A DNA stretch of 64,000 bases from contig CAWCJM010000003.1 of the NCBI GenBank assembly GCA_963795875.1, positions 662,574-726,573 on the forward strand. The letters run 5' to 3'. Below the pieces are notes generated by a model, which was given only the letters and a program-made list of their open reading frames with translations, was not told the DNA's origin and did not search any database. Both the position numbers and the translations under genes were made by a program. Positions 663-21,166 of this stretch are shown here, one piece after another. This DNA is from an uncultured Acidobacteriaceae bacterium (lineage in GTDB: Bacteria > Acidobacteriota > Terriglobia > Terriglobales > Acidobacteriaceae). Within the stretch, counting starts at the first letter, position 1. Every line of letters starts with the position of its first letter.

Positions 663-668
663 ACTGAT

Positions 669-3458: not shown

Positions 3459-3599
3459 GAATGTGTGCTATCGAGATTCGTGTGGGAACAGTCCACTCCT
3501 ACGGCTTAAGGACAGGTCCCGGCTGTCCTGCCGGAAGTCAGCCGGCAGTTGCGCACCAGAAGGAGGAACTTTTGATCTTACAGGTCAGAGAAAAGGGGG

Positions 3600-3613
3600 G
3601 TCAAACGGGGAGA
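3600..3613 (+). repeat. 14-nt direct repeat copy 1 'gtcaaacggggaga' (candidate target-site duplication, left)
   Basis: Identical 14-mer at 19128-19141 and 21592-21605, all in the same orientation. This copy lies immediately outside the left inverted repeat. Confidence 0.7.
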
Positions 3614-3645
3614 GGGGTGAGAACAGGACGGGATGGAATATGCAC
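3614..3645 (+). repeat. Left terminal inverted repeat (TIR arm A) of the casposon-like element
   Basis: 'ggggtgagaacaggacgggatggaatatgcac' versus the reverse complement of 19097-19127, 'ggggtgagaacaggacgggatcaatatgcac'. 30 matching positions, differing only by gg versus c. Confidence 0.7.
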
Positions 3646-3741
3646 TCCTTCTCTGTACCTTCGTGCCGAAACCAAGAAGTTGAGCTCGGCATCCAATGCA
3701 GTAGGAGGATTTAACGCTTATGTCGTGGAAATTACGGAAAG

Positions 3742-3798
3742 ACCTAAACGGACCGCTGAGCCTGCCGAAGCTACCTAAACCACCGAGCTTACCTAAAC
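3742..3798 (+). repeat. Subterminal direct repeats 'acctaaac' x3, about 100-150 nt inside the left TIR
   Basis: 'acctaaac' at 3742-3749, 3773-3780 and 3791-3798, each followed by a (c/g/t)(a/g)(c)cg context. A related 'gaaactaaag' lies at 3821-3830. Confidence 0.5.
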
Positions 3799-3851
3799 TA
3801 CCGAAACCGCCGTCTTTGCCGAAACTAAAGACGCCTCCCGAGCTACGGCCT

Positions 3852-4284
3852 CTAAAGCCACTCGCACCGGTCGGGCTCATGATGCGTTAAGCATTTCGCA
3901 GCTACCGAGACCAGCTTGTGGCGTGTGGCGGCAGGATCGACGGTGGCGGCGCGAGTTTCGATCTTAAGTATCCGCTGATATTCAGCGTCCGTAGGCTCGG
4001 GAGTCGGACTTGCGGAGTCTGGACTTGTATCCTCATGCGCTTGCTTCAGACGCTGAACCACGGGAAGATCTTTTGCTTCCGGCAATGGAATCTTCATTTA
4101 CTGGTTTGCCGAATTCTCTTTTGGCCGAATAGCCTCGCCCTGGTCGAGGAATTTGCAATTTGCGACACACCTTACCGAGCATGACTGACGAAATGCCGTA
4201 CTTCGCTGCTACCTTTGTTGCTGGTTCTTCCCAAATCTCTGCATAAAGTTCTTCACGGTTCCAAGCCTCCATATCGATCTCCAA
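3852..4284 (-). CDS. Hypothetical HTH-like protein (WNREELYAEIWEEP...AAKYGISSVMLGKVCRKLQIPRPGRGY motif); one apparent frameshift near 4090
   Basis: ORFs 4033-4284 and 3852-4097 join into one protein. The N-terminal motif resembles a widespread uncharacterized family with a GYWxK-type motif; this family assignment is from memory, not searched. Confidence 0.5.
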
Positions 4285-4313
4285 TCAAGTTCTGAACCAT
4301 GAATTGTACGAGA

Positions 4314-4790
4314 TCATTTTCGAACTGGCACTCGGCGGACAACATTCTTAAGAAGCTGCAGTGATCGCGCGTGAACTGGTTGGCCTCGTCGTGCTCGCAC
4401 GATTGTATGACGACTCAATCCGGTTTCGAATTCCAAAAAGGCTAGCGGTATTTCAAGTAGCCGTTTTCTGAGTTGCTCATCGGCAATACCCGTATCAGAA
4501 CCGTATCGCACTAGCGAAGGCATCAGCGTACTCACATCGTCGCTCTGCTCCCAGCCTCGCTCCGTTTCTTTGCCGATCAAATGAAAACTCGTTGCTGTCA
4601 CCGGATATCGCTTGAGCAGACCAGCCGTATCGGGTTTGCAACGGCTTCCATCCGGCGCGGAACTCTTGGCTTCGCGGTGGCCATGATACTGCTTGAATAC
4701 CATTGCAAAGGTTTGCACCACGATCGGTACGATCGGCTTTTCCAAACTGTGAGTTGTGCCGTCATGAATCTTCACATGAGGCAATTTCAT
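4314..4790 (-). CDS. 158-aa hypothetical protein, translationally coupled to PolB, with a C-terminal HTH-like segment; paralog at 21979-22371
   Basis: The ATG (4788-4790) overlaps the PolB TGA (4787-4789) as ATGA. The motif QYHGHREAKSSAPDG..DTAGLLKR...IGKETERGWEQSDDVS is repeated in ORF 21910-22371. Confidence 0.65.
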   Translation of the reverse strand: MKLPHVKIHDGTTHSLEKPIVPIVVQTFAMVFKQYHGHREAKSSAPDGSRCKPDTAGLLKRYPVTATSFHLIGKETERGWEQSDDVSTLMPSLVRYGSDTGIADEQLRKRLLEIPLAFLEFETGLSRHTIVRARRGQPVHARSLQLLKNVVRRVPVRK

Positions 4791-7198
4791 CCATTGCGAT
4801 GAGTCTTTTTGAATGGAGCCAAGAGAGTGAGCGGAACGTTGGTCAGGTTCACCAGGACTGGAGACAGTGCAAAATTGTAGGGTCTGGCCTGATCGCGTCG
4901 TAAACGACGCAGTGCTGCCATGACGTTGGGTGTGCTGATAGCGATCCGTCTCATAACCGGAAGACGAAACCACTTCGGCTTGTGACTGCGGAATCGGAGA
5001 GCCTGGTTCAACATCCATTGCCAGCCCTCCTTGATCCAGGTTGCCACCTCACACTCTGCATCGCGACCCTCTTTTGGTCGATAGTAGAGGCCGAGTCCGT
5101 GCTCACTCACTTTGATGAGGTGAATTCCAGATTTCTCCCGGGTGTACAGAGCGTAGCGTTTCGCGGAAATACCGTAGCCGTACAGTTGTCGTTGGCCACC
5201 TTCCGAATCGAAATTGAGCTCTTGGACAATGTTCAGGATTGAGCCTGGAATCACTCTCTTGTCATAAGGATTCAAAACCTCGAATCGATTGACTATTTCC
5301 CGAACCTGCTTCCATGGCAGAGCTTTGATGGCATCACTTCCATCCGGCATCCGATGCGACCCGCCAGTGCACCGTACGAGACCGCCTTGTTCCGACGAGG
5401 CGATAGCCATGGAATCGGTGTCGCACATGAGATAACTTCCGCCGGCATCTGCGACCATCCGTTCCAACATGGTCAGAAGCAATCTTCCGCCTGCTGTAAT
5501 CAAAGAGGCCACAGGTGGGAAATACCAGGGGCCCGGCACTTCCATGACGCAGGTTCGTTCAGTCCCGCTCAGTTCTCCCGAAAAGATTCCGATTTTCTTT
5601 GCCTTGTTCTTCCCAACTTGGAGCTTGTTGACTTCGGCATAGATTCCATAGCACCCGGCGTTCGCCAGGATTTTGAGGAAATAATAGAGCGGATCGCTCT
5701 TCTGTTTTCCCTTCCGTTCTTCAATGACTTTGCGAAAGAAATCATCCACATACGGATCGATCGAGCCTGTCCCCAACGTAACGGAGTTCATCCCCTTCTG
5801 AACGCCTACCGGTTCGATCCGAATTGCTCGCAAAATCTTCGATGGTCTCCCCGTTAGTAGTGCTGATCCGACCACGTCGGGACCCGCGAGCCAAACTGGC
5901 GCATCTGACGTGAGAGGATTCAGTCCGATGTTCGTTTGGCCAACTGTCTGACCATCTCCATAGACCGTTCGAACCGGGACGATATCGCCTTCGGGCTGGA
6001 CCAAGGCAAAGAAGGCGAGCTTGGGCCATGTCCTCTGATCAAGCAGACTATCGACCGTGAGTGATTGCAAAAGAGCTCGGATCTCGTCACTGGCGTCTCG
6101 CACTTGTACTCGATCTGCCGTTAGGACTCGCCATAGACCCAAAAGGGTGTTTACCGTCGGGTATTGGCTTGTGAAATCTGTATACACAACCGGGACAGGA
6201 GTGTGACGGATGCGAATTTCCGCGCGTCCACCGTAGTACGCCTGCATGCAGATGCCGTTCGTCTGGTTGTCGAGCTGGAATTTCTGCTGTGGCGAGATAA
6301 CCCCCATCGTTTTCAGAAAGGCTTTGGCGATGGAAGCAGCTGAGTAGGCTCTTTCCGGTGGAAGGTCGCCCAGAGGATAGTTTTTGAATTCGGCGATTAG
6401 TGCGTTCAGCAATCCGACGGTCGCACGAACGTCTTGCCTGCAATACTTGATCTCTTCGGGCGTGACTCTTCCACTTGGAACGTAGTTGTCAAGTTTGCCC
6501 GGCACCTTGAATTCGCGACACGCACTATCAAGACTGAGACTCTTGTTTCGGAGGGCCCAGACTAACGTCTTGAGATCGAGGAACCGACCGACTCGATACG
6601 GTTGGTTCATGTCGCCTCCGGCCAAGCGAATGAAGGCAGCTTTCGAGTCTTTCGGGCGAAGTTGGATGCGAGGGCGGAACGTGTTCGGCAACCACTCGCC
6701 TTTTGCCTTGTTCTTGTAGCGAAAGACAACAAAGCTCCAACCTCGTCCTCCAGCTCCGCGCGCTACGCGATACTCGACCGCGAGCCGCGACAGATCGAAA
6801 GGCAAGTTGAAAGCGACAATCGCTGCTCCAGCCTGGACCGCCGTATACATCACTTTCTCGACGAATATCCGGCGCTCGTAAAGCCTGAGTTTCAACTCAC
6901 CTTTAGCCCGTTTCTCGTTTTGCTCAGTGACGTAGGCGCGGAATACGCTCTGCTGTCCTGGTGCTAGTTCGTCGCCATAGAAGATTCCTTCCTCCGGGCA
7001 CCGATACTTGCCCTCGGTCGTCAATTCACAAAACTGATAAACACCGAAATTTAACGTCTGGAGGGCATCGGTAGTAGTCTCGGTATCGACAACGAGAACA
7101 TACTTCGGAAGCGGGTCTTGTTTGCGTTTTCCGCTCTTTTCTAAGGTTTCCTCCTCCAGGATGCAGGTATGACAGCGGAGAAAAATTTCGTGATTCAT
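4787..7198 (-). CDS. polB: Family-B DNA polymerase (803 aa, intact)
   Basis: Motifs in canonical order: Exo I VLVVDTETT, Exo II AFNLPFDLSRL, Exo III YCRQDVRAT, motif A VVYTDFTSQYPTV, motif B KILANAGCYGIYAE, motif C YLMCDTDSMAI, KxY ISAKRYALY. Confidence 0.9.
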   Translation of the reverse strand: MNHEIFLRCHTCILEEETLEKSGKRKQDPLPKYVLVVDTETTTDALQTLNFGVYQFCELTTEGKYRCPEEGIFYGDELAPGQQSVFRAYVTEQNEKRAKGELKLRLYERRIFVEKVMYTAVQAGAAIVAFNLPFDLSRLAVEYRVARGAGGRGWSFVVFRYKNKAKGEWLPNTFRPRIQLRPKDSKAAFIRLAGGDMNQPYRVGRFLDLKTLVWALRNKSLSLDSACREFKVPGKLDNYVPSGRVTPEEIKYCRQDVRATVGLLNALIAEFKNYPLGDLPPERAYSAASIAKAFLKTMGVISPQQKFQLDNQTNGICMQAYYGGRAEIRIRHTPVPVVYTDFTSQYPTVNTLLGLWRVLTADRVQVRDASDEIRALLQSLTVDSLLDQRTWPKLAFFALVQPEGDIVPVRTVYGDGQTVGQTNIGLNPLTSDAPVWLAGPDVVGSALLTGRPSKILRAIRIEPVGVQKGMNSVTLGTGSIDPYVDDFFRKVIEERKGKQKSDPLYYFLKILANAGCYGIYAEVNKLQVGKNKAKKIGIFSGELSGTERTCVMEVPGPWYFPPVASLITAGGRLLLTMLERMVADAGGSYLMCDTDSMAIASSEQGGLVRCTGGSHRMPDGSDAIKALPWKQVREIVNRFEVLNPYDKRVIPGSILNIVQELNFDSEGGQRQLYGYGISAKRYALYTREKSGIHLIKVSEHGLGLYYRPKEGRDAECEVATWIKEGWQWMLNQALRFRSHKPKWFRLPVMRRIAISTPNVMAALRRLRRDQARPYNFALSPVLVNLTNVPLTLLAPFKKTHRNG

Positions 7199-7530
7199 GG
7201 CAAGCTCTCCTCTTCAGAAAGAAGTTGGGCGCATCGATGCATTGCATCGGCGAGCATTCGAAGGAACACCGCTGTAGCGTTGAGCGCACACTTGACGGTC
7301 AGCCTAAGGTTAAGCTGAGCACGCATATCAGCGTCTGCTCGGCGGCGAAGTTCCGTCACCATTGCATGGCATGCTAGGCAGAGTGGAGCCGTAAGAAACT
7401 CATCGTGGTTCTGACCAGCGGTATGGTCTTGCTCGATAAGGAAACCTGTTCTCCCACAAAGCAAGCACCTTCCTTGCTCCAAGCGCCGAGCTCTTCTACG
7501 CGCAGTCTCGATCGGCTTTTCGTTCATCAT
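7195..7530 (-). CDS. HNH-type endonuclease-like protein (111 aa)
   Basis: CLLCG...EQDHTAGQNHD...LCLACH arrangement (CxxC...DH...N...CxxCH). 4-nt overlaps with both neighbours (7527-7530, 7195-7198). Confidence 0.65.
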   Translation of the reverse strand: MMNEKPIETARRRARRLEQGRCLLCGRTGFLIEQDHTAGQNHDEFLTAPLCLACHAMVTELRRRADADMRAQLNLRLTVKCALNATAVFLRMLADAMHRCAQLLSEEESLP

Positions 7531-7988
7531 GACGACGCCTCCGGGAGGGCGTAGATTTCATCCAGCGTTAACGCACCCGCTTGGGCCAGGGAACTCAGAA
7601 GATCGGGGTCGGTGATCAGCGCGTGTCCACCAATCGACTTTCCTTCGAACTTCCCTAAGCCTTCAACATCACCCGTTCGGAGGTACTTGCCGACCGCCGC
7701 CATGTATTTACCCAGCTCCGACGCTTGCTTCGAACCGCGTACCGTGACTGGAGCGTTTCCAACGGCCGTCGGTACCAGCATGTCGCGCTTTCGGCGATCC
7801 CCTCTCGTGCTCTTTCCGTGCTCCCGTAATTCGGTCGAAAGGTATCTCCGGACAGTGCGAGGATCGATTTCTTCCTCTCGTGCCGCGACGGTTAAGCTCG
7901 AACCCGTCCGGCGCATCCGCGCGAGTACATGAAGTGCGCGGTTGTACGTTTTCTGCCTTTTTCCACGTCGTTTTTTACCGTTTCGCAT
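7527..7988 (-). CDS. Hypothetical DNA-binding (HTH) protein, first gene of the polB operon
   Basis: Basic N-terminus followed by ALHVLARMRRTGSSLTVAAREEEIDPRTVRRYL (HTH-like). Stop overlaps the HNH start. Confidence 0.55.
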   Translation of the reverse strand: MRNGKKRRGKRQKTYNRALHVLARMRRTGSSLTVAAREEEIDPRTVRRYLSTELREHGKSTRGDRRKRDMLVPTAVGNAPVTVRGSKQASELGKYMAAVGKYLRTGDVEGLGKFEGKSIGGHALITDPDLLSSLAQAGALTLDEIYALPEASS

Positions 7989-8122
7989 TCCTCAGCTCCC
8001 TTCTGCTACTGCTTGATGGAAGCTAACATGTGCTATATCATTGGTTTACGTCGACTCGCTGAGGACGTTTAAGCTTAATACGGCAATAATGATGTTTTAA
8101 GTATTATTAACTTGGCAAGTGC
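7989..8122. promoter_or_regulatory. AT-rich divergent intergenic region between the polB operon (-) and the cas1 operon (+)
   Basis: Locally very AT-rich: ...ttaagcttaatacggcaataatgatgttttaagtattattaacttggcaagtg. It sits between two divergently transcribed gene sets. No specific promoter boxes are asserted. Confidence 0.45.
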
Positions 8123-9124
8123 ATGGAACTCGATGACTTTAATTTGGCGGAAAAAATCTTGTCGGCGCTCGACGAGCACAAGCCCCTACGAGGTTATCCG
8201 TCACAAATTGACAAAGATCGGTTGTGGAACATGCGCCAGCACCTTCGTTTTTTTTTAGAGACCACTTGGGACGAGGTTGGCTGCCGGTTTCAAACTTTCC
8301 GAAAGATGGCGGATCTGCGAGCTGTTATGAAGCCCTGGGAAAAACGAATAGAGCAGGAAGAGCATGTTGTAAGAGCCTTACTCTGGAATGGCGAACGGCC
8401 AGCTACATCGAGATCGCTGTATCGCCAGCGCAAGCAGCTTGGCAAGTTGCGTGACCGTTACATGAGCGCGATAGAGTTGATCGATCAGTGTCGGGATTTC
8501 CTGGAGCGCTTCATGGTCATTCCCGCTCAACACCTATCCCTTGCAGAACAGGACGTCATCCGCGACGCGATTTGCGAAAGAGCACGAAAGCTGGCTCATG
8601 CTGGAGAGGAGTGCATTGCTCTGAGGGAACAAGAAAAAGAGTTGGAAATATTGATAAAAGACGGCGAGGCTTACTTTGCTCGAAATGAACTGTTCGATTT
8701 CTACCGTAGTAAGCGCTACAGACTGACACCCCTCGACGTTGCGAATGCTCTTGCGGGCCTTCCATTCATAGGTTGGAGACGTTCTGCTGACAGATGTCGA
8801 AAATGGAAGGAAGAGCCAGAAGGTATAAGCTTCGGGATTTTTCGCATTCTTCTGCGAATTGTAAGAGCCAATGTACGCCGATCGGATTTGATGAGAGATG
8901 CGGATAAGTTCATCGAAGCCAAGAGCCCTATAGGGAACAAATTTGCTCTCGCTGATTTGCGCGAAAATCGTTATTACCTTCGAAGGTCGATAGCCGCCGT
9001 GTTGGAGCAAGGAACGAAGCGGGTTGACCTAACGGCTGCGATTTCCAGAGAGTACTGGAAACGCAAGTCACACCCCACTGCTGTAGACCGTGCATTTGCA
9101 GAGGAAGAAAGAATCGTAAAGTGA
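8123..9124 (+). CDS. 333-aa hypothetical protein, no recognisable domain, translationally coupled to cas1
   Basis: Long intact ORF. Its TGA (9122-9124) overlaps the GTG (9121-9123) of the cas1 ORF. Confidence 0.6.
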   Translation: MELDDFNLAEKILSALDEHKPLRGYPSQIDKDRLWNMRQHLRFFLETTWDEVGCRFQTFRKMADLRAVMKPWEKRIEQEEHVVRALLWNGERPATSRSLYRQRKQLGKLRDRYMSAIELIDQCRDFLERFMVIPAQHLSLAEQDVIRDAICERARKLAHAGEECIALREQEKELEILIKDGEAYFARNELFDFYRSKRYRLTPLDVANALAGLPFIGWRRSADRCRKWKEEPEGISFGIFRILLRIVRANVRRSDLMRDADKFIEAKSPIGNKFALADLRENRYYLRRSIAAVLEQGTKRVDLTAAISREYWKRKSHPTAVDRAFAEEERIVK

Positions 9125-10572
9125 TCGCGTTTCCTCAGAATGGAGATCCAATGGCCTCGACTTCGTTTTCTCAAACAAATATTCAGCCTCGACAAGGAGT
9201 AGTCACACTTTTTGGATACGGGACGAGCGTGCGCGTCGATCGAGGACACTTGGTCCTCGAAGATGGAATTGCAAACAATCGTCATCAGGGGCGTTTCCCG
9301 AGAGTTGGACACGGTCTTCGACGGGTTGTCGTCATTGGCGCAGACGGGATGGTTTCGCTCGCTGCTCTCCGTTGGTTAGCGGACCAAGACGCAAGCTTTG
9401 TGATGCTTGATCGGGATGGCTCAATGCTGGCGACAACGGGCCCGGTTCGATCTTGGGATTCCAAACTTCGGCGTTCTCAAAGTCTTTCAATTTAAAATGG
9501 TGCAGGTCTGCGGATCGCGCGGGATTTGATCAGCAAGAAGCTTTCCGGACAAGAACAAGTCTCACGCAACAAGCTTCTGGATTCCTCAACTGCCGACAAA
9601 ATCGCTCGTTACAAATTCGAACTGCCTCATGCTGACTCCATTTTTACAATTCGGTTGATTGAGTCGCAAGCTGCACGCGCCTATTGGTCTGCGTGGAGCA
9701 CGTTGCCAGTGAATTTCCCGAAGAGCGACTTACCACGAGTTCCCGATCATTGGCGCAGCTTTGGAGCACGTGTTTCTCCCCTTACCGGATCGCCTCGACT
9801 TGCCGCCAATCCAGCCAATGCAATACTGAACTATCTTTATTGCGTTCTAGAATCTGAATACCGGTTAGCGGCTACTGCGCTGGGGCTGGACCCTGGTTTA
9901 GGTGTCCTGCACGTCGATACTCCATCTCGGGACAGTATGGCGTGCGACGTAGTGGAGCCGGTTCGCTCTGCCGTAGATTCGTATGTTCTCGATTGGATCA
10001 CCCGACAGCCATTAAAGCGTGAATGGTTTTTCGAACAGCGGGACGGCAATTGTCGATTGATGGCTCCGTTCGCCGTCCGTCTGTCTGAAACAGCGACGAC
10101 TTGGAGACGAGCGGTCGCTCCGGTGGCGGAATGGATAATGAAACAATTCTGGTCGACGACGCAGAAGCGAACGCAGACTCCCCAAGCACCTACGCACTTG
10201 ACTCAGGCACACCGACGCGCAGCTAAGGGTACTTCATCTGAAACAAGCATGCGCGCAGCACAGCAGAGCGATAACCTCTGTCCAGGATGTGGAAAAACAA
10301 TTCGGAGTAACAGCAGGACCTGTGTCCAATGCGGCATCCCGACCTCGACGAAGAACATGTTGAGTGCAGCCCGAGTCGGACGTTTGACGGCAAATGGACC
10401 CGAGGCCCAAGCTAAGCGAGCGACAAAAGCTCGGACGAACACACTAGCAAAACATTCGTGGAAGGATTCCGATCAACCAGCTTGGCTAACACCTGAATTG
10501 TTAGCGGGAACAATCCAGCCTTTGCTGGCTAGCGTTTCGATGTCAGCCATCCGATTGACACTTGGAGTTTGA
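9121..10572 (+). CDS. cas1: Cas1-family integrase (casposase-like) with C-terminal Zn-ribbon and HTH. Disrupted by one frameshift near 9490 and two in-frame stops (10570, 10579); homology continues to about 10650.
   Basis: N-terminal domain: GHLVLEDG...LRRVVVIGADGMVSLAALRWLADQDASFVMLDRDGS. Catalytic domain: ANPANAILNYLYCVLESEYRLAATALGLDPGLGVLHVDTPSRDSMACDVVEPVRSAVDSYVLDWI (E, H and D/E residues present). Zn-ribbon CPGCGKTIRSNSRTCVQCG. After GV-TGA-NW-TAA the same frame reads GSKIRQGYRPHPRHWQNCAALVG. Confidence 0.85.
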
Positions 10573-10675
10573 AACTGGTAAGGAAGCAAGATTCGACAAG
10601 GGTATCGCCCACACCCGAGGCACTGGCAGAACTGCGCTGCACTTGTTGGGAACGCTTCTGGTGCAGTCCCAGCTT

Positions 10676-11600
10676 CTAATCGCGGTTTCCCGATTTCACA
10701 ATCCAGGTCCAAACGACTACGACGGTGGAGGCAGCGACAATAAGTTCCGCCCAAGTGAAGGAAACGTAATCGCCAAACACCCCGACCGGAGGCACGCCTG
10801 GCTCCACATTGCGCAGGGCCGGCAAGCCAAAGATGAGAGACACCGACAATGAGAGCGGCAACAAGGTGGATTGCCCCTTGACTGCCGTCGCCGCAGAACC
10901 ATGGCGAGCAGGCTCAGCGCCAGGCACATCATAGTGAGCATCACGACAATCGTGACACCTATCACATTGTCGGCTCGTCTTATGGACAGGTCGATTCCGG
11001 TGACTTCGTGGCTCTGGGCCCTTGAAATTTGCCCACGGAACTTGACTCCCGGGATGGACGCTGTCAGATCAATAGAAATGGGAACGTGATCTTGCTCCAA
11101 CGCTGCCGGGTCGATCGCGAGATTGGGGATCGAGGGCGCGGTCAGTGCATGTGATGAGGGCGGAGGAGCCGATCAAGTAGTCCGGACGCAGTTAGCAGGA
11201 AGCCCAAGGTCGTCTGATGACGGTCAAAGGGGTATCGATTCGTATCTCCGTCAAGGGAAAATTCCGCCTCAAAAGGTCTCATAATTTCTCCGACGGGAAA
11301 ATCGATCTCCTGAGACCCCTGAGAAGCGTTGAGAAACAACTTCAAATTACGTGCCGGAGTTACTCCATCCTTTGTAAGATTTCCGACTGGCCGAAGGCGT
11401 ATCTGTACTCTGAGTTCTGAACGGTTCAGATTCGCTTCCATCACTCTGATACTCACACCGACACGGTCTCCGTCTTTCGCCTCCCGAAGGCGCAAAGAGC
11501 GCCTTTCGCTTTCATGTAGATTGAAAATCAGGATCGCAACGTAAAGAAAACCAACTAACGGCATGATCAAGATTCGAAATCTTGACCCTGGAATGTGCAT
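10676..11600 (-). CDS. Membrane protein (DUF4436-like, from memory), split by about 2 frameshifts
   Basis: ORFs 11142-11600, 10717-11100 and 10676-10927 join into one protein. N-terminal TM ILIMPLVGFLYVAILIF, then ...NRYPFDRHQTTLGFLL, and C-terminal TM segments. Confidence 0.45.
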
Positions 11601-11924
11601 ATTGAACCCCGCGCGGGCTCAGGCGGCTATGGTTGGGCATCCTATGAAGTTCAGGGATTGTTTCCTACTGGCACAAGTGACAGGGGCGAGTCTTCGGAAA
11701 AACATCTATTGATCTGGCCATGCCTCCCCACGCAGACGATTTCCGCGGACGACTGGCAATTCTGTCAGTTGTCGGGTTCGACAGCGCGCGATATTTTCGC
11801 GCACAAGCGGAATCATCTTTCGGTGATGGGGAAAAACAATGAGCGCCGACGACAGAGCGGTCAAGCATGATTCACAAACAAACAAATCAAAGGCCCAAAC
11901 CGGCGCGCCGGCAGGGCCGCGTCC

Positions 11925-14253
11925 ATGGACCGTACCGTGCTGCCCGTTCCCGAGCCTCAGTATCCGCCGATCACCGAGCTTGATGTGCACAATGCGCAAG
12001 CCCCGCCACGGTTCCAGGTGAAAGCGCCGAAAGGCGCGCCCAACGTGGTGGTCATCCTTCTCGACAACTTCGGCTTCGGCGATGGATCGACGTTCGGGGG
12101 ACCAATCCAGATGCCGACGCTGGACCGATTAGCCGAGACCGGGCTGCGCTACAACAATTTCAAAGTCCCTCCGTTGTGTTCGCCCAGCCGCGTGGCTTGC
12201 CTTACCGGCCGCAATAGCCATAGCGCAAACTTCGGCGTGATCTCGGAAATTGCCACTGCTTTTCCGGGATACACCGCGATGCGTCCCGCCAGCGTTACGA
12301 TGCTGCCCGAGATCTTGCGGCTGAACGGCTATAACACCGCCATGTTCGGCAAATGTCACGAGCTGGGCCCTTGGGAAGCCAGCGTTGTCGGACCGTTCGA
12401 CCGCTGGCCGATGAATAGCGGGTTTGAGAGGTTCTACGGCTTCATGGCTGGCGAGGCTGACCTGTTTCATCCGGTCATTTACGACAACATGAACAGGGTG
12501 GATATGCATCCCGAGCCCCGGTTACTACGCCAGCTCTGACATCACAGACAAGGCCATCGAATGGGTGCGATCCCAGCATTCACTGGTCCCCGACAAGCCA
12601 TTTTTCGTCTACTACTCCGCCATTGGCACTCACGGCCCGTTCCAAGTGCCCGAGAACGTGGCGCGACCGGTACAAGGGCAAGTTTGACCGCGGATGGGAC
12701 CAAGTGCGAAAGGAAACGCTGGCCCGCCAACTCGAAATGGGAGTCGTGCCGCCGGGCACGGAGCTCGCCCCCAAGCCGCCTGGGATTCAGGAATGGGAGG
12801 ACTTGACGGCCGATGAGAAAAAGGTCTTTGCCAGGTACATGGAAATCTATGCCGCCTTTGGCGAGGTGACCGACTACGAAATCGGGCGGTTCTGGACGCG
12901 ATCGAGAACCTGGACCTGATGGATAACACGCTGATCTTCTACATTACCGGCGACAATGGCTCGGTTTTCCAGGGCGGCCCCATCGGCGCGTTCAATGAGC
13001 TATCTGTGTTCAACGGACTGCCAGAACCGCTTGAGGTGGCGCTGAAAAACCTCGACAAGTTCGGCGGACCCCAATCCCACATTTTGTATCCCAATGGTTG
13101 GGCTTTCGCCGGCGCCACGCCTTTTGCCTGGGGCCACCAGGTGGCCTCCTACGGCGGCATCTGCCAACCAATTGTGATCCATTGGCCGAAAGGCATCAAG
13201 GAGAAGGGCGGCCTGCGCACGCAGTGGTACCACATGATTGACATCGTCCCAACGGTGTTGGAGGCAGTTGGGGTGCCCCAGCCAGATGTCGTCTATGGCG
13301 TCAAGCAGAAACCTATCGAAGGCGTGAGCATGCTCGATACTCTTAATAACGCCCAGGCCAAGTCGCGCCACACCACGCAATACTTCGAGATGGCAGGCAA
13401 CCGTGGCATCTACCAGGACGGCTGGTTCGCCACCACGGTGCACCGTCCGCCATGGGAGGCTAAGGCGCGGGCTACATTTGAAAACGACAAGTGGGAGCTT
13501 TACGACGTGGAGAAAGATTTCAGTTGCGCGCATGACCTTGCCGCCAAGTATCCCGACAAGCTTGAAAAGCTGAAAAAAGTTTTCCTGGAGGAGGCCGTAA
13601 AGTACAACGTGCTTCCGCTCGACGACCGCGCCTGGGAGCGCTTCAACGCCGCCTTGGCGGGCCGTCCGGATCTGATGGAAGGTCGCACCGAGATGACGGT
13701 CTATGAAGGAATGAAAGGAATACCCGAGAATGGGTTCATCAACGTCAAGAACCGCTCCTTTGTGCTTGCGGCCGATATCGAAATTCCTAAGGCGGGCGCT
13801 GAAGGCGTGGTCATCGCCCAGGGCGGGGAAATGGGCGGCTGGAGTCTCTATGTGAAGGACGGCGCACCCAGGTTTGCCTACAACTTTCTCGGTCGCGAGA
13901 CCTACAAGATCGTTGGCCCCGCTCCCCTCCCGGCCGGGAAGGTGATACTCCGCTTCGAGTTTGCCTACGATGGTGGTAGGCCCGGCGCGGGAGGCAACGG
14001 TTCGCTTTTCGTCAACGGCGAAAAGGTCGCCACGGGGCGGATCGAGCACACTCATCCGAACGCGTTTGGCGCGGAAACAACGGACGTCGGCGAAAACCTC
14101 TATACCGCCGTCAGCGACGACTACAAGGTGGGCGATAACAAGTTCACCGGCAAGATTAACAAGGTGACCATCCAGGTCGGCAAATCCAACCTCAGCGAGG
14201 AGGCACAGAATGCTATCCAAGAAATGCGTGGAAGGAGAGCGATGGCCGGCTAA
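11925..14253 (+). CDS. Arylsulfatase (formylglycine-dependent), at least 3 apparent frameshifts
   Basis: APNVVVILLDNFGFGD, sulfatase CxPxR motif PLCSPSRVACLTGR, and a downstream large C-terminal domain. Pieces 11925-12539, about 12540-12690, 12623-12919 and 12919-14253. Confidence 0.85.
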
Positions 14254-14264
14254 TTGTACCCGTG

Positions 14265-14295
14265 AGGAACGCTTCGTCCGCGGGCTAGCGTTCCT
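14265..14295 (+). terminator. Perfect 9-bp hairpin just downstream of the sulfatase
   Basis: aggaacgct (14265-14273), 13-nt loop, agcgttcct (14287-14295). No clear T-run. Confidence 0.35.
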
Positions 14296-14386
14296 GTGAG
14301 AGTGCCGCTAGCGTTTACGGCAAGCGGGTGTCTTGAGTACGGCTATCGCTGGGAAAGTCTGTTCGACATGTTTGGAGGACAGAAAC

Positions 14387-14696
14387 ATGAAATATGCATT
14401 GATTACAGGGTTGATGTTGTTAGCGACATCGCCTTACGGGAGCGCCCAACAAAGCGAGTATCCGATGATGGAGAAGGTCGCTCAAAAAGTCATCGAGAAA
14501 TACCAGAAGTCCAGTTGCGAAGATCTGAAAGCCGAGAAAGCGCAACCGCCAAAAGCGCCAAACCCCCAGCAGGCCGCGATGAAGCAGAAAGCTGTCGCAG
14601 CCCTGAAGAACGAATCCGAAGATGCGCGAGCAGTTCCTTAACAAAATCGCAGGGCCCATTGCCAACAAAATGTTCGAATGCGGCGTGGTTCCCTGA
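14387..14696 (+). CDS. Small secreted protein, one frameshift near 14620
   Basis: Signal peptide MKYALITGLMLLATSPYGSAQQ. The C-terminus in a shifted frame reads MREQFLNKIAGPIANKMFECGVVP*. Confidence 0.45.
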
Positions 14697-14861
14697 TCAC
14701 CGAATTACGGCGTGAACAGGAACATCGCAAGAACCTGAAGAACTGCCAAAAACAAACGTCAAGTTTCTTGATAAAACCAGCGTTCTCTAAGCTCGCGGCA
14801 CATAAACAAAGAAGCAATGACAAGACTTGCGTGGAACACACTATCCTCAAAGGAGAACTCT

Positions 14862-15290
14862 ATGAGGCAAAACCATCTCACGATCGACTTCCCGATTAAA
14901 TCGCCTTCCAACGTGAAGGCGCTGACCGAAGAGCTGCCCTCGTTGATGCCCGATTTCGCGAAAACGCAGGATAGCCTCGGTACCGTGCATTTCTCCCGTT
15001 TCGCGGTCCACGGCGACGAGAAGCTTCTCTTCCTTGCGGACGTTGACGGCGAGGTAAATAAATATTGAACGACTCGTGGAGAATGCAGGAGCCGTTTTGA
15101 AGCCATCTTCAAACACTGGAAAACCCTCCGGTTACGCCCGTGGCGAGTAACTCAGCGGCGGCCATTGAAATGGCTGAAGAATCATAACCACCGGCCTATC
15201 ACGCCGTATAGCGCTTTCGAGGACACTTCGTTAAGGACATCAGGGCGGCCGCGTGCGGCGGGCTTTACGGGCAACACCCACAGAGCACTT
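14862..15290 (+). pseudogene. Small conserved protein usually found next to DyP-like peroxidases (family from memory); multiple frameshifts
   Basis: MRQNHLTIDFPIKSPSNVKALTEELPSLMPDFAKTQDSLGTVHFSRFAVHGDEKLLFLADVDGEVNKY, then shifted frames IERLVENAGAV..., ...NPPVTPVASNSAAAIE..., ...LKNHNHRPITPYSAFEDTS. Confidence 0.35.
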
Positions 15291-15319
15291 GGCTGATCTG
15301 CGCCCGCCATTCAAGTTCA

Positions 15320-17290
15320 GGTATTTAAAGCCTTTATCTTGGAGAAGGTGGTCTTGAAGGCTATAGAGGGCAAGGGTAGGAAAGGTGGATTTATTAGGGA
15401 CGCTGCACTACGACTGCTCCGTGCCTTTCAAGCGCCGCTTTTGGAATTATCACAATCTACGACGGTTCTTTCGCGCGATACATCCAAAGATTCGCAGATC
15501 AACTCGGCACGCGTTCAATGTCTGGTTTCAATTTATTAGTGGGGCGCCTCCGAGCCAGTAGCGAAGGCCCGCCCAGGCGTTCCTTACATGGGCAGATGAA
15601 AACGACCGCCCGGCCATCGGGTTTTGCAGCGCCTATCAAGCCCCTCGGGGTTGGATTCTGGGGCAGCCTGGCCGATCGCAAGACACAGGACAGCGCTGCA
15701 TAGCAGTTGTCACATTGGTCACCAAACCAGGACCAATAGGGGAGCCGTGTGACGACGGGGAACACACCACATACGGCACCGGCGAAGGACGGCGTTGGGT
15801 ACCGGCCGTTCTTGGTCGCGGGCGGCACGAAGCCCCAGAGACGGATGGCCACTGGGAGGCAAGGGAAAGTCGGCGCTCGCCCTCGCGGACATCGGCTTTA
15901 TTCTCCGCGCTTACAAGAATGCCGACGCTGCGACACTTCTTATTGACGGTAGTAAATCCTGCACAGGCGCGCCGGCAACTTGGACGGCTGGTATGCGGCG
16001 ACGAATCTGACGTCCCGCAAATCACTACTGCCGAGGATTGGCACGTGGGGTTCGGGCCCGGACCGGGAGACGATCCGACGGATGTACCCGCGTCGCAAGC
16101 CCGATCTGCCTCAACATCGGTATCACGTGGCCCGGACTGGTTGCGCTGGAGATAAAAGAACGTGTCCCAACGCTATCCTTCAAGTCATTTGGTGCATTCA
16201 TCGAAGGAGCCGCGCAACGAGCCGAGTTAGTCGGGGACACGGGGGCAGACTGGCCGGAACTCGATTGGCGGTTTTGGAAAAGGACACGACCACGTGATGG
16301 TGACGCTCACCATGGCCGGAAGCGGATCGACTACACCGACAGATTGTGTCGCTGGTTCGCCGAAGGAAATGCCTTTCAAGAATGACACCGAGCGGGATGG
16401 CGTTAATGGAGATGCAAAATGGCCAACCCGTTTTTACCGGCGAAGATCCGCTTTGGTAATACCGACGGCGTGGGTTCCGCCCACAATTCGCGGCGGACCG
16501 GAAATTTATCATCCTGATCATCAGCAGCCGTGCGGCGTTGCTTTTGGTTTTACGGGAAGACGTCAATTACATGTTTACCGGAACCGCGAACACTTGGTCT
16601 AAACGGCAGCTTTGCAGTTTTCAAGAAAGCTCGAGACTGATGTCATTCCATTGAAAGGTTTCTGCAGTCGAACAAGAACAAAATAGATCCTGAACTGCTC
16701 GCCGCAAAGATGTGCGGGCGATGGCGCAACGGTGTTCCTCTTGCCTTGTCGCCGGACACGGATCACCCACGGGAGGTATTTAGCCCCCGCAGTTGAACAA
16801 TTTCGAATACGTGAATCCCGACGGGTCGGGGCAATCCGAAGGGAATTCGCTGTCCTGTTGGAGCTCACGGTAGGCACACTCAATCCCGCGAGGTCAGCGA
16901 GTTGCCAGGGGCTACCCGGAGGTAGCAATAATTCTCACCGGCTGATTCGTCGCGGTCTGCCTTACGGACCGACCTATGCATCCCAAGCAACCTTTCGCGG
17001 TCACTGACGTCGGGTGCTTCTTCTTATTAACTCTAATATCGAAAACCAATATGAGTTTGTACTGCGACGTTGGGTAAATGACAGCGAATTCGCTGGAGCC
17101 GTCAGGCTGAACCCAAAGTCCAAAGATCCCCTAATGGGCACCCAGGATCCAGCGGAAAGCATTTTCGTGATACCGCAGGCAAATGGGGAGCCGCCGGTCG
17201 AGGTGACAGGTCTGTCAAGCTTCGCTACCACCAAAGCCGCTGCCTACGTTTTTCTGCCGAGCATCACAGCTATCAAATTGATCGCTAACT
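15320..17290 (+). pseudogene. DyP-type peroxidase-like gene, heavily fragmented (many frame changes and stops); boundaries approximate
   Basis: Fragments CLNIGITWPGLVALEIKERVPTLSFKSFGAFIEGAAQRAELVGDTG and the C-terminal block LLLINSNIENQYEFVLRRWVNDSEFAGAVRLNPKSKDPLMG...AAAYVFLPSITAIKLIA, typical of the DyP family C-terminus. Confidence 0.5.
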
Positions 17291-17373
17291 CGGAAAACGA
17301 GATTAAGAGAGAGAAAAGAGTTAAAAGAGAAGTGGACTTAAAAACGAAGAACCGAGAAGGGATGGAGAACTCA

Positions 17374-17715
17374 ATGAAAAGAATGTCGCAGAAAGCATTG
17401 CTGGTCATAACCTTGCTATCGTTGGCGATTAGCCTAGGGCTGCCCCCCAGAGCGGCATCACAGAATCAAGGAACAGCTAATCAAGACAAAGCTAAGGCTT
17501 GTAACGCTCAAGCCGACAGTAAGAGTCTAGAGGAAGATGAACGCAAGACGTTCGTGCAGGATTGCCTCAGCAAAGCCGGTGTTCAGCAGCCCAGCGAGAT
17601 GAGTCAGAAGGACAAGATGAATGCCTGCAAGGAGATCGCTGACAAGAAGAACCTCACGGGAAGCGACCGCAAGTCGTTCATCAAGGACTGCATGAATAAA
17701 GCTAACCCAAAATAA
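17374..17715 (+). CDS. PsiF-repeat secreted protein
   Basis: Signal peptide MKRMSQKALLVITLLSLAISLG, then two repeats of the type K..CN/K..A..K.L.G..RK.F..DC (KAKACNAQADSKSLEEDERKTFVQDCL; KMNACKEIADKKNLTGSDRKSFIKDCM). Confidence 0.65.
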   Translation: MKRMSQKALLVITLLSLAISLGLPPRAASQNQGTANQDKAKACNAQADSKSLEEDERKTFVQDCLSKAGVQQPSEMSQKDKMNACKEIADKKNLTGSDRKSFIKDCMNKANPK

Positions 17716-18057
17716 CAGGCGCAGTTCTATGGCAATCCCGTATGCCCTCCCGGAACGGCATCTTGGGCGTCCGGAGTGCCTGTAAATGTGGCGAGTACAT
17801 TGGACGTTCGCCGCCTTTATTCCGCAGGGTTGAAGCCTTGTCACAACAGTTATCGTTCGGGACCAACTGTGAGAAAAATACCACTTCCATAACCTTAAGT
17901 TTACCCCTACTTGCGAAATGAGCCTAGGGCGAGGAATGGCACAATAACGGCTTACTCCCGGAGGATGTAATGTAATCGCGAATCAAACTTCTGTATTCTT
18001 TGTACTGATCGTCATTGGATTCATGTCGCCACTTTTGGCCAACAAAAGGGGCAGTGG

Positions 18058-18981
18058 GTGCCGGGACAGTTTGGTCTCAATGCGGGTGTGATTCCAGACC
18101 CCGGAGTAACATATGCCAACTTGGCAGTGAATTACTCCGCGGGTCAATTGAATGACTCCAATGGGAACAACATTCTTCAGAATGTTACGGGGAATTACTC
18201 CTTCTGGGTAGACGAAAACATCTTTTATTATGTCCCGAACCACAAGGTGCTGGGCGGCTATTTCATGCCCTATGTCGCGCTAAGTTATGCAAACGGGGAG
18301 TTGGTGGCGAATATCACCGGCACGAATCTCAACAGCGGCGGAGGTGGGTCGGGTTTTGCCGACCTGTTTGTCGAGCCGTTGCTTTTTGGCTGGCATTTCG
18401 GCAAACGAGTCGACTTTAATGCCGGATACGGATTCGTTGCTCCAACCGGCCGCTACACTGCGGGAGCGAGCGATAACGTGGGTTCCGGATATTGGGGGAA
18501 CAATATCACGTCAGGCACCACCCTCTATATCACCAAGAACCAGGGGACCACCGCAAACCTTGCCACCAACTGGGAAATCCACGGCCAAAAGAGCGTGGCC
18601 AACGTGCTGAGCGGTCAAAATAGCAAAATCACCCCCGGCCAGGCTTTCACCGCTGAGTGGGGAATTGGCCAGGTTCTTCCCTTGAAGAAGAATATGAGCC
18701 AACTGGCCCAACTTGGATTAGTTGGATATGACCAATGGCAGGTTTCGGCTAACGGCGGCAATTACTTGGTAGCCGGAATACCCGTTGCGGCGAGCAGGGT
18801 ACCGTACTACTCAGTTCACGGAATCGGTTTCCAGGCCAATTACATTCTGCCTGCGAAGAATCTGGTAGCCTTCTTCAAGTACTACGATGAGTATTCAGCG
18901 AAAGCTCGTCCGAAAGGACGCACGATCGTGTTCGGATTTTCATGGACGCTGAAGATTCCGAAATCGACGCCAGCAAAGTAA
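18058..18981 (+). CDS. Outer-membrane beta-barrel channel of the MetA-pathway/phenol-degradation-like family; the N-terminus with signal peptide probably lies upstream, frameshifted
   Basis: Alternating beta-strand pattern, aromatic-rich, with terminal ...TIVFGFSWTLKI. Family assignment is from memory of the Phenol_MetA_deg-like family. Confidence 0.55.
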   Translation: MPGQFGLNAGVIPDPGVTYANLAVNYSAGQLNDSNGNNILQNVTGNYSFWVDENIFYYVPNHKVLGGYFMPYVALSYANGELVANITGTNLNSGGGGSGFADLFVEPLLFGWHFGKRVDFNAGYGFVAPTGRYTAGASDNVGSGYWGNNITSGTTLYITKNQGTTANLATNWEIHGQKSVANVLSGQNSKITPGQAFTAEWGIGQVLPLKKNMSQLAQLGLVGYDQWQVSANGGNYLVAGIPVAASRVPYYSVHGIGFQANYILPAKNLVAFFKYYDEYSAKARPKGRTIVFGFSWTLKIPKSTPAK

Positions 18982-19096
18982 GCATCTTCGCTTGGACAGG
19001 CGCGCCGTCGGTTAATTGAAGCTCTGCAGTGTAAGGAACGTGGTGAAGCGTCCTCGGCTTGCAATCGATTCCTTTATTTCGCAGCCCAAGACGGGG

Positions 19097-19127
19097 GTGC
19101 ATATTGATCCCGTCCTGTTCTCACCCC
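19097..19127 (-). repeat. Right terminal inverted repeat (arm A') matching 3614-3645
   Basis: 'gtgcatattgatcccgtcctgttctcacccc' is the reverse complement of the left TIR except for 1 substitution and a 1-nt indel. Confidence 0.7.
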
Positions 19128-19141
19128 GTCAAACGGGGAGA
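19128..19141 (+). repeat. 14-nt direct repeat copy 2 'gtcaaacggggaga'
   Basis: Identical to 3600-3613 and 21592-21605. Lies immediately outside arm A' and immediately before arm B. Confidence 0.7.
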
Positions 19142-19180: not shown

Positions 19181-19183
19181 GCG

Positions 19184-19273: not shown

Positions 19274-19291
19274 TGTGTCGATTTTCATTTT

Positions 19292-21142: not shown

Positions 21143-21166
21143 TCCCCGGCGTTACTAACTCACCCA

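Follow-up and report, generated by a model that had tools for sequence, protein, structure and literature searches.

The segment at positions 3614-19127 of the 64,000-nucleotide stretch of Acidobacteriaceae DNA analysed here (the window) is, with high confidence, a casposon of the family 3 type, put in place by a Cas1-family integrase at a fixed target of 14 bp, part of which lies in the putative −35 hexamer of the valS promoter. Casposons are self-replicating transposons inserted by a CRISPR-type Cas1, and it has been proposed that the CRISPR adaptation machinery descends from them. Three elements are lined up at a single conserved position, this casposon (element 1) being the first, in the order: promoter, 14-mer, casposon, 14-mer, a 2.45-kb non-autonomous element, 14-mer, and the truncated remnant of a third element. 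A preliminary description of the sequence had proposed a 15.5-kb element upstream of valS; its repeats are real and delimit the casposon. Of the 14-mer, that description had recognized two copies, both of which are real, but had overlooked a third exact copy at 21592-21605. The evidence consists of the anatomy of the element, homologous sites with and without insertions, the conservation of the site, and family affinities.

Terminal repeats and duplication

Element 1 is bounded by the following features:

3600-3613, + strand: target-site duplication copy 1, nearest valS, exact 14-mer
3614-3645, + strand: left terminal inverted repeat of element 1, type A, terminus GGGGT
19097-19127, − strand: right terminal inverted repeat of element 1
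19128-19141, + strand: target-site duplication copy 2, common to elements 1 and 2

The two 14-mers are identical (GTCAAACGGGGAGA) and in direct orientation, and each is adjoined by one of a pair of inverted repeats of 32 and 31 nt. The left arm is GGGGTGAGAACAGGACGGGATGGAATATGCAC and the reverse complement of the right arm is GGGGTGAGAACAGGACGGGATCAATATGCAC; when these are aligned, the 21 terminal bases match perfectly, GG then stands opposite C, and nine further bases are identical, giving the 30 matched positions that had been claimed. The right arm and the 14-mer together fold as a short hairpin (CCCCGT caa ACGGGG). Since the arm opens with GGG, as many as 17 nt could be assigned to the direct repeat; comparison with related elements places the terminus of the arm at GGGGT and limits the duplication to 14 bp.

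When up to three mismatches are permitted, the 21-nt arm has only two sites in the 64 kb (shuffled sequences lead one to expect 0.00). The 14-mer has exactly three exact copies in the 64 kb and no further match at up to two mismatches, a threshold at which 0.54 matches are expected. Comparison of these recurrences with the shuffled expectation excludes chance.

Genes of element 1

The casposon reading, which the preliminary description had drawn from the length and geometry of the repeats, is supported by what lies between them: a Cas1, a family B DNA polymerase, and weakly HNH-like and HTH-like genes. The genes are:

4314-7198, − strand: family B DNA polymerase with a C-terminal HTH-like tail (PF03175, 35 bits)
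7195-7530, − strand: 111-aa protein, weakly HNH-nuclease-like (NCBIfam HlpB, E=0.003; phrog_333 HNH, E=0.006)
7527-7988, − strand: 153-aa protein with a weak N-terminal HTH match (transposase-type)
8123-9124, + strand: conserved 333-aa all-helical coiled-coil protein, function unassigned, directly 5′ of Cas1
9151-10665 (end approximate), + strand: casposase, with Cas1 domain and C-terminal zinc ribbon and HTH (PF01867, TIGR00287)
10700-19096, mixed strands: variable cargo, mostly broken host-like genes, including the next four
10717-11600, − strand: DUF4436 fragments
11925-14253, + strand: arylsulfatase fragments
17014-17715, + strand: PsiF-repeat protein
18058-18981, + strand: MetA-type outer-membrane protein

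The casposase matches PF01867 (E=2.5e-26 for the fragment in the window, 1.2e-41 for its homologue P0001) and, above cut-off, TIGR00287, and the active-site motifs can be read in the translation: E (LIESQAARAYW), H (GVLHVD) and D..E (CDVVEP). It has 87% identity, with zero indels, to the Cas1 of L001, a sister element in another genome, and is interrupted by three nonsense codons: 9493-9495 (TAA), 10570-10572 (TGA) and 10579-10581 (TAA). The Cas1 copies of L001 and L194 are uninterrupted. Judged from its sequence, the casposase gene of the window copy is a pseudogene. The preliminary description had missed that Cas1 carries three nonsense codons, not one, and that the polymerase has a frameshift, which is due to a 1-nt deletion near 4810 detected by comparison with L001. 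Given these disruptions, the copy in the window has probably lost its autonomy, although the sequence of the window is indel-noisy (valS is broken too), so that some of them could be assembly errors. The Cas1 is “solo”: there is no CRISPR array in the 64 kb, and a scan of the ORFs within 1-25 kb gave no match to cas2, effector or other cas genes among those of the element.

Once the deletion is repaired, the polymerase is about 961 aa long, and it has 93% identity to an intact homologue (P0121). Its motifs are complete (Exo I-III, A, B and C), motif C being CDTDS; its HTH-like tail was recognized by inspection, and PF03175, above cut-off, is its sole Pfam match. No useful match to the polymerase emerged when its sequence was searched against the PDB. 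The AlphaFold model is poor (pLDDT 57), and a fold search with this poor model matched family B polymerases at E of about 1e-5; among the matches listed were the primer-dependent ASFV, E. coli Pol II, Pol alpha and Pyrococcus polymerases, and the best 50 held no phi29-type enzyme.

The 111-aa HNH-like protein is kept in L001, L051 and L194, and the 153-aa protein, whose HTH matches are weak (E=0.001-0.004), is kept in these three and in L021. The 333-aa protein has 60 homologues, none of them with a Pfam domain; one homologue bears the only source name (“prefoldin subunit 5”). P0241 is a 100% identical copy of the protein. A fold search of the PDB with its AlphaFold model (pLDDT 86) gave no significant match. 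No similarity was found between the cargo of element 1 and that of L001.

Family affinity

In the casposon literature searched, four families are described, and the experiments cited were performed on archaeal enzymes. Against the references from Additional file 2 of PMC4046053, Cas1 of element 1 gave BLASTP scores of 119-200 bits for family 3, 89 for family 2, 61-79 for family 1, and at most 61 for CRISPR Cas1. By this ranking of sequence similarity, as distinct from a tree, it is closest to the bacterial casposases of family 3, not to those of family 1.

The family 3 casposons include NitAL212-C1, StrAlb-C1, HenMar-C1 and AceAut-C1 [Krupovic et al. 2014, PMC4046053]. Element 1 resembles them in having a bacterial host, a Cas1 with 31-38% identity, a size in the range of 14-20 kb, and a polymerase that adjoins weakly HNH-like and HTH-like genes. 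With AceAut-C1 it shares a Cas1 with C-terminal zinc-binding and HTH domains, and with NitAL212-C1 a 14-nt duplication and the GGGGT terminus. It differs from family 3 in that its host belongs to the Acidobacteriota (Terriglobia), to which no casposons are tied in such a manner in the literature searched; in that it targets a conserved block at valS that looks like a promoter, in place of an unspecified intergenic site; in the conserved 333-aa coiled-coil gene 5′ of Cas1; and in the very large population to which it belongs, with more than 2,400 polymerase clusters.

Family 2 comprises archaeal elements, AciBoo-C1 of Aciduliprofundum boonei and MetMaz-C1 of Methanosarcina mazei, which likewise integrate site-specifically with direct repeats of 14-16 nt and, in Methanosarcina, in tandem at a single site. 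The gene order of AciBoo-C1 (polymerase with HTH tail, HNH, HTH; supplement of PMC4046053) is also that of element 1, where the matches of the HNH-like and HTH-like genes beside the polymerase are weak. However, family 2 elements target tRNA genes and their Cas1 has 25% identity to that of element 1; they have been proven in vitro (A. boonei) and in vivo (M. mazei), whereas element 1 is known from sequence alone.

Family 1 (NitAR1-C1 and others, from Thaumarchaeota) has in common with element 1 the combination of Cas1 and polymerase, terminal repeats, duplications, tandem insertion at one gene (ef-2) and a polymerase matching PF03175. Family 1 differs in its low Cas1 similarity and in its thaumarchaeal hosts, that of element 1 being bacterial, and its polymerase is plainly protein-primed, whereas that of element 1 has CDTDS as motif C. 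Element 1 could be read as a family 1-like bacterial casposon with a protein-primed polymerase, which would make it a new family that combines a bacterial casposase with a pPolB. PF03175 is named “organellar and viral” and holds protein-primed enzymes, and the termini of element 1 begin with a run of G, as is favoured by sliding-back priming. We regard this reading as unlikely, since the Cas1 is far nearer to family 3; since CDTDS as motif C is the signature of the cluster that includes the A. boonei casposon polymerase [PMC7544198]; since the fold matches, from the poor model, are to primer-dependent enzymes; and since the arrangement of polymerase with HTH, HNH and HTH belongs to families 2 and 3, family 1 being without the HNH and HTH set.

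Occupied and empty sites in relatives

The type A repeat of element 1 recurs in L001, L194, L006, L027 and others. L001 shares both the core genes and the terminal repeats of element 1 and occupies the homologous valS site, where it has its own duplication of 15 bp (CCCTCTGCGTTTGAC), about 130 nt upstream of valS. The matching empty site is L024, in which the flanks of L001 are joined through a single copy of CCCTCTGCGTTTGAC; L194 is an intact element copy at the same valS site. An empty site, as looked for in the preliminary description, is thus demonstrated for the sister element (L001 versus L024), but a metagenome scan with the window's own junction sequence found none for the lineage of the window.

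The duplicated sequence differs between genomes that carry one and the same element type, which fits a duplicated target and not an attachment site borne by the element. This bears on the possibility that the direct repeats are attL and attR of a genomic island moved by a tyrosine or serine recombinase, with Cas1 and the polymerase as passengers. Such islands do reuse one site, form tandem arrays and leave empty sites with a single core [PMC6563490]; however, a search of the ORFs of the element revealed neither kind of recombinase, the repeats directly adjoin inverted terminal repeats, their length of 14-15 bp is the value for casposons, and an attP carried by a single element type could not match the different 14-mers of its hosts, so that this possibility is very improbable. 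That the 14-mer and arms are instead a dispersed intergenic repeat (REP/BIME type), which brackets 15.5 kb of ordinary DNA, can be dismissed: the hairpin and the G-rich repeats common in the intergenic DNA of this genome would suit it, but scattered copies, a possibility raised in the preliminary description, are absent from the 64 kb, where all three 14-mers and both arms are at element boundaries, the bracketed DNA carries Cas1 and a polymerase, and in other genomes the arms accompany these genes while the 14-mer varies with the host.

The target site at valS

The casposon targets a conserved block that lies some 140 nt upstream of valS and, by its sequence, looks like the valS promoter:

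3575-3604, − strand: predicted sigma-70-type valS promoter, part of the conserved target block

The prediction comprises a −35 hexamer TTGACC (3604-3599), a spacer of 18 nt and a −10 hexamer TAAGAT (3580-3575); it is the sole promoter-like site in 3300-3800, and the assignment is based on the match to the consensus and on conservation. Across the 71 loci from Terriglobia MAGs in which the site is present, conservation is 94-100% for GTTTGAC and the CC after it and 87-96% for the TTC that comes next, none of which was required by the search pattern that collected these loci; the seven target bases distal to valS vary. In metagenomes, the motif is at exactly the 14-nt register in 78 of 125 type A ends, and many of the remaining 47 have one-base variants of it. 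A terminal repeat adjoins the valS site in at least half of 72 Terriglobia genomes. As no Rfam RNA gene was found at or near the target (1-26000) and no tRNA in the window, the target is neither a tRNA gene nor a known riboswitch.

For the chemistry of integration, the function of the promoter and the replication step, we infer the following from analogy with archaeal casposases. The casposase would hold both 3′ ends of the element (terminus ...ACCCC-3′) and attach each to one target strand, at positions 14 bp apart, after which repair of the gaps would produce the 14-bp duplication. Recognition of the site would rely on GTTTGAC, the conserved half of the target, and on the adjoining “leader-like” promoter block; the A. 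boonei casposase depends on a leader motif beside its target and on only five 3′-terminal bases of the element [PMC6614799]. The excised element would presumably be copied by its own family B polymerase. The insertion junction falls within the putative −35 hexamer, and the duplication restores it: as the copy proximal to valS rebuilds TTGACC, the promoter should survive, and as every insertion regenerates the site, it was used again.

In this respect, the situation is similar to that of Tn7 at attTn7, downstream of glmS, where a conserved safe harbour beside an essential gene is used and the gene is spared. Tn7 differs in using enzymes unrelated to Cas1 (TnsABC+D), in its 5-bp duplication, and in inserting downstream of the gene, not in its promoter.

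The locus points to a large and diverse population of bacterial casposons in soil Acidobacteria, in which several lineages compete for the single valS site and natural miniature derivatives exist. The target is sharply defined and easily cloned (a 14-bp segment beside a 30-bp conserved block), and provides material for studying the reading of a “leader” by an enzyme of the Cas1 family, whether the growth of arrays is polar, and how an element can sit in the promoter of an essential gene without harming it. For annotation, the array accounts for a low-GC insertion of 19 kb upstream of valS, and the Cas1 gene at this locus should not be counted as a CRISPR system.

The tandem array

Distal to element 1, the window contains:

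19142-21591: element 2, non-autonomous, 2,450 bp, with terminal repeats at 19142-19178 and 21555-21591
21592-21605, + strand: target-site duplication copy 3, closing element 2
21606-21642, + strand: type B terminal inverted repeat, start of truncated element 3
21979-22365, + strand: C-terminal fragment of a second, divergent casposon polymerase, remnant of element 3

The terminal repeats of element 2 are of type D, 37 nt long and 78% complementary. Besides a 198-aa ORF, it contains a pair of frameshifted ORFs that ends in what looks, by eye and without a database match, like an HTH tail; no Cas1, polymerase or any family match was found in it. The type D repeat adjoins the same valS site in L022 and L031, and similar-looking ends are present in L029 and L052.

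For element 3, neither a partner arm nor a fourth 14-mer was found in the window, and the far side of the array is truncated. The reverse complement of its type B repeat adjoins the valS site in five loci (L002, L008, L034, L035 and L050), and its first bases (21606-21685) have 81-86% identity to L008, L050 and L034. The polymerase fragment was detected by tblastn with residues 834-952 of the L001 polymerase (36% identity, E=1e-15), and 22179-22355 has 80% DNA identity to L050.

It is conceivable, and we propose it tentatively, that the valS-promoter locus of Terriglobia is a natural leader-directed array of the repeat-insert-repeat kind, built by a Cas1-family integrase. CRISPR adaptation (Cas1-Cas2 at the leader-proximal repeat) likewise employs an integrase of the Cas1 fold, whose staggered attack duplicates a segment of fixed length beside a conserved leader, with a repeat-insert-repeat outcome. 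The differences are that here no Cas2, CRISPR array or effectors were found, that the “repeat” is 14 bp, and that the inserts are selfish and kilobase-sized as opposed to spacers of about 30 bp. Since only the promoter-proximal 14-mer has the “leader”, new casposons and derivatives of several lineages would always be added there, and, if so, the array would be chronologically ordered, as in CRISPR. If the locus is such an array, the thousands of polymerase and Cas1 clusters in soil data would represent a casposon population far larger than any described before, and a bacterial system for testing the proposed transition from casposon to CRISPR. The element nearest the promoter is the best preserved in the window and the farthest one is the most degraded, which fits polar growth. 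Some sites bear footprints resembling excision. At other loci, the local 14-mer is present two to three times at intervals of 1.8-5.7 kb, and terminal repeats lie in these intervals.

Terminal repeats and a tandem array

The preliminary description had placed a pair of inverted repeats flanked by identical 14-mers at 3600–19141, upstream of valS, and had read them as the ends of a casposon. The sequence is as it claimed and the interpretation was right in kind; absent from it was a third exact copy of the 14-mer, at 21592–21605. The features are as follows.

Repeats in the window
3600–3613 and 19128–19141, direct orientation: target-site duplication, 14-mer GTCAAACGGGGAGA
3614–3645: left terminal arm of element 1, GGGGTGAGAACAGGACGGGATGGAATATGCAC, directly inside the 14-mer copy
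19127–19097, other strand: right terminal arm of element 1, GGGGTGAGAACAGGACGGGATCAATATGCAC, directly inside the 14-mer copy
19142–19178 and 21555–21591: terminal repeats of element 2 (37 nt, 78% complementary), which spans the 2,450 bp between 14-mer copies 2 and 3
21606–21642: terminal repeat of element 3, GGGGTGGAAGGAAGGGACGGCAAAACTGCCACACCCC, after 14-mer copy 3

The first 21 nt of the element 1 arms are 100% complementary according to the repeat finder, and the remainder differs solely by GG versus C. The 21-nt arm occurs at its two known places, with no further match in the 64-kb window at up to 3 mismatches (expected 0.00), and the 14-mer has exactly three perfect matches there, with no others at up to 2 mismatches. 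By these counts the repeat pattern of element 1 is neither due to chance nor a dispersed repeat, the alternative that the preliminary description had named.

Element 2 contains no Cas1 and no polymerase; its coding content consists only of a frameshifted ORF pair, which by our own reading, with no database match, ends in an HTH-like tail, and a 198-aa ORF. Its left end (19142–19270) is a purine-rich tract of about 130 nt (GGGAGAAGGGAAGGAAGGG...AAAAAAAAACAAAAAAGGGGGAGGGAAGGAAAG...), which includes a 15-nt tandem repeat at 19222–19257. The terminal repeat of element 3 is the one adjoining the valS site in five other loci (L002, L008, L034, L035, and L050), and 21979–22365 codes for the C-terminal end of another casposon polymerase, which shows 36% identity (E=1e-15) to that of L001, a sister casposon locus, and 80% identical at the DNA level to L050. 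No partner arm or fourth 14-mer was found for element 3, which is truncated beside a MacB-type permease gene at 22432. Thus, the three 14-mers and three elements give the structure putative promoter, 14-mer, casposon, 14-mer, mini-element, 14-mer, remnant.

Gene content and classification of element 1

At position 3500, G+C falls from 0.62 to about 0.52. The core genes are as follows.

Core genes of element 1
4314–7198, minus strand: family B DNA polymerase, Pfam PF03175 above cut-off
8123–9124: conserved 333-aa gene
About 9151–10665: Cas1 gene (PF01867 and TIGR00287), with a C-terminal zinc ribbon and a weak HTH match

The polymerase has the exonuclease motifs Exo I (VVDTETT), Exo II (NLPFD), and Exo III (YCRQD) and the polymerase motifs A (YTDFTSQYP), B (KILANAGCYG), and C (CDTDS), and upstream of it are two small genes with weak matches to HNH-nuclease and HTH. 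The 333-aa protein is all-helical with long coiled coils (the predicted model is confident, pLDDT 86) and is kept directly upstream of Cas1 in several lineages, with identity down to 25% in locus L021; neither a PDB fold match for the model nor a family match was found for it and its homologues (P0241–P0300), and a possible role is that of an accessory factor in recognising the target or the ends. Past 10.7 kb there are broken host-like genes: DUF4436, a three-piece arylsulfatase, a PsiF-repeat protein, and a MetA-type outer-membrane protein. No CRISPR array is present in the 64-kb window. A 27-nt tandem repeat of 2.4 copies (3763–3827) lies a short way into element 1 from its left end and falls in a small minus-strand ORF (3578–3880).

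An intact homologue of the window Cas1 (P0001) was ranked by similarity against the reference proteins in Additional file 2 of Krupovic et al. 2014 (PMC4046053).

Similarity of P0001 to reference Cas1 proteins (identity, score)
Family 3, Saccharopolyspora: 37.7%, 200 bits
Family 3, Streptomyces albulus: 33%, 161 bits
Family 3, Nitrosomonas AL212: 33%, 158 bits
Family 3, Henriciella: 31%, 119 bits
Family 2, A. boonei: 25%, 89 bits
Family 1, Nitrosopumilus: 24–26%, 61–79 bits
CRISPR Cas1: 61 bits or less

The Cas1 of AceAut-C1 (family 3), which has C-terminal zinc-binding and HTH domains, points the same way as these scores; in NitAL212-C1 the duplication is 14 nt long and the terminus is GGGGT, as in the window element, and the annotated order in AciBoo-C1 (HTH, HNH, polymerase with an HTH tail) would also match that of the window, where the HNH and HTH genes are putative. 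The casposon literature searched describes only four families, with a protein-primed polymerase confined to family 1 of Thaumarchaeota. On a first reading the polymerase here was taken to be protein-primed, its sole Pfam match, PF03175, being a family that includes protein-primed enzymes. Against this, its motif C, CDTDS, names the cluster containing the A. boonei casposon enzyme (PMC7544198), a PDB sequence search returned no match, and the 50 matches listed for a low-confidence model (pLDDT 57) include primer-dependent family B polymerases and no phi29-type enzyme. Thus, from the Cas1 ranking, the family 3-like features, and the arguments against protein priming, element 1 is filed as a family 3-type casposon. 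Such an architecture is textbook, and the element is therefore not categorically new; what it adds is the tandem array, the putative promoter target, and a large, diverse Terriglobia population using one site. No description of casposons in Acidobacteria or at valS was found in the casposon literature searched.

The target site upstream of valS

Scanning 185,579 species-representative genomes with the conserved valS-side junction sequence TTTTCTCNNNCCTGTAAGATCAAA gave 72 loci, all in Terriglobia or Acidobacteriaceae MAGs save two labelled Verrucomicrobiia. In the valS sense, the target reads [7 variable nt]GTTTGAC / CCTTCTTTTCTCGCGCCTGTAAGATCAAA, and at the window 3599/3600 junction it is adjoined by a conserved block, CCTTCTTTTCTC...TAAGAT. 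Over 71 loci, GTTTGAC and the next CC are conserved at 94–100% and the following TTC at 87–96%, none of which was demanded by the search pattern that gathered the loci, and each of the seven bases at the distal end of the duplication has an information content of 0.2–0.8 bits.

The sole sigma-70-like site in 3300–3800 consists of TTGACC (3604–3599), an 18-nt spacer, and TAAGAT. Thus, the junction between duplication and flank lies inside the putative −35 hexamer, which is restored by the valS-proximal copy of the duplication. Consensus match and conservation together suggest that the target block is the valS promoter; no known RNA family or tRNA was found at the target.

Among 125 type A ends (the terminal-repeat class of element 1) gathered from metagenomes, GTCAAAC begins exactly 14 nt outside the terminus in 51 and GTTTGAC ends at the terminus in 27, while many of the remaining 47 are one-base variants of the GTTTGAC/GTCAAAC motif. 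Elements of the same type have different flanking 14-mers in different hosts, as target duplication predicts and as would not be expected from an attachment site borne by the element. Some type A ends (L095, L119, L122, L156, L157, L179, and L188) abut GGTCAAAC, followed by flanks that are unlike the valS block, yet promoter-like in appearance at equal spacing; such places may be valS promoters that have diverged, or else secondary targets.

By analogy with the casposases of A. boonei and N. koreensis, GTTTGAC and the adjoining conserved block would guide the enzyme, which would use the 3′ ends of the element (...ACCCC) to attack both strands of the target at points 14 bp apart; repair would then duplicate the 14 bp. 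Those two casposases need a leader motif beside the target, still work when two-thirds of the duplicated segment is lost, and of the element need no more than its five 3′-terminal bases (PMC6614799), a biochemistry that the GGGGT terminus of most repeat types and a target with one conserved and one variable half would suit.

Occupied and empty sites in relatives

Database matches to the repaired window Cas1 run into the thousands. Its best 120 are all 66–88% identical, come from soil and peat assemblies, and are about 420–555 aa long (mostly about 505); a single one of these 120 bears an organism name, Candidatus Sulfotelmatobacter. The top match is L001, a 2.29-Mb contig in which the core genes common with the window have 87–97% protein identity and the terminal repeats are those of the window element (GGGGTGAGACAGGACGGGAGGGAATATGCAC...); the element there is flanked on either side by a direct repeat of its own, CCCTCTGCGTTTGAC, roughly 130 nt upstream of valS, and carries cargo unrelated to the window's. 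An IS element (DDE transposase, L001 6411–7736) interrupts the polymerase gene of this sister casposon, so that its first 67 codons are left in an ORF of their own, the “104-aa” ORF. At a further locus, L194, there is an intact copy at the same site, with a Cas1 of 505 aa and a polymerase of 961 aa that is 93% identical to the repaired window polymerase.

The empty site that the preliminary description had proposed to look for was found for the sister element and not, on searching, for the window's own lineage. In L024 both L001 flanks, including the upstream terminator hairpin, are joined via a single CCCCCTCTGCGTTTGAC; L024 is the empty site of the sister element. Three other loci (L010, L033, and L067), with a terminator hairpin directly upstream of the site, look empty, as does L018, where a single copy of the window's own 14-mer is present.

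By pattern matching, seven terminal-repeat types recur next to the site and account for 35 of the 72 loci; every type begins with GGG, and most with GGGGT. Further loci look occupied by eye. Types C and G have divergent polymerases (28–42% identity) alongside in L021, L051, L058, and L073. In eight loci the locus's own 14-mer is repeated 1.8–5.7 kb upstream (with one mismatch in three of the eight), L053 has three copies, and the pieces separating the copies bear terminal repeats, e.g. a 1,770-bp piece in L009 with a near-perfect 36-nt repeat. Pieces of 2.3–3.8 kb in L046, L050, L053, and L068 are flanked by the host 14-mer and have unlike terminal-repeat types at their two ends, looking as if neighbouring array elements had been fused by internal deletion. 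At L003 4481–4508 two copies of the host 14-mer TTGATCCGTTTGAC directly adjoin each other, and near the valS site of L034 an imperfect 14-mer doublet stands beside a type B terminal repeat (the class of element 3). Casposon excision is predicted to leave such a footprint, i.e. both copies of the duplication (PMC10359463), and these doublets look like excision footprints with the duplication left behind.

State of the window copy

Compared with L001, the window Cas1 has no indels and three nonsense codons (TAA at 9493, TGA at 10570, and TAA at 10579); in the polymerase, a single nucleotide is missing next to a T5 run near 4810. Element 1 also has the GG-to-C change in its right arm and fragmented cargo genes. 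In L002 and L052 valS is intact (931 and 948 codons); compared with these, the window gene (607–3458, minus strand) has indels of one base at no fewer than five places and is spread over three frames. The broken valS is either assembly noise or a copy itself decaying behind three promoter insertions. Because the window, valS included, is indel-noisy, frameshifts alone cannot be trusted. The casposon core has far fewer indels for its length (1 per about 5.4 kb of coding sequence). The nonsense substitutions are concentrated in Cas1, with none in valS; those in Cas1 are more likely real, and the window copy is probably a decaying element that has intact relatives elsewhere.

A further frameshifted gene is suggested at 30833–33505 (minus strand), where four ORFs of 202–408 aa overlap in different frames, in keeping with sequence quality that varies over the window. 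Finally, a pair of 35-nt inverted repeats (47437–47471 and 60850–60884; 91% complementary, 13.4 kb apart), each arm of which holds an internal palindrome, GCCGAGC..GCTCGGC, may represent either a hairpin that is repeated or the two ends of a further element.
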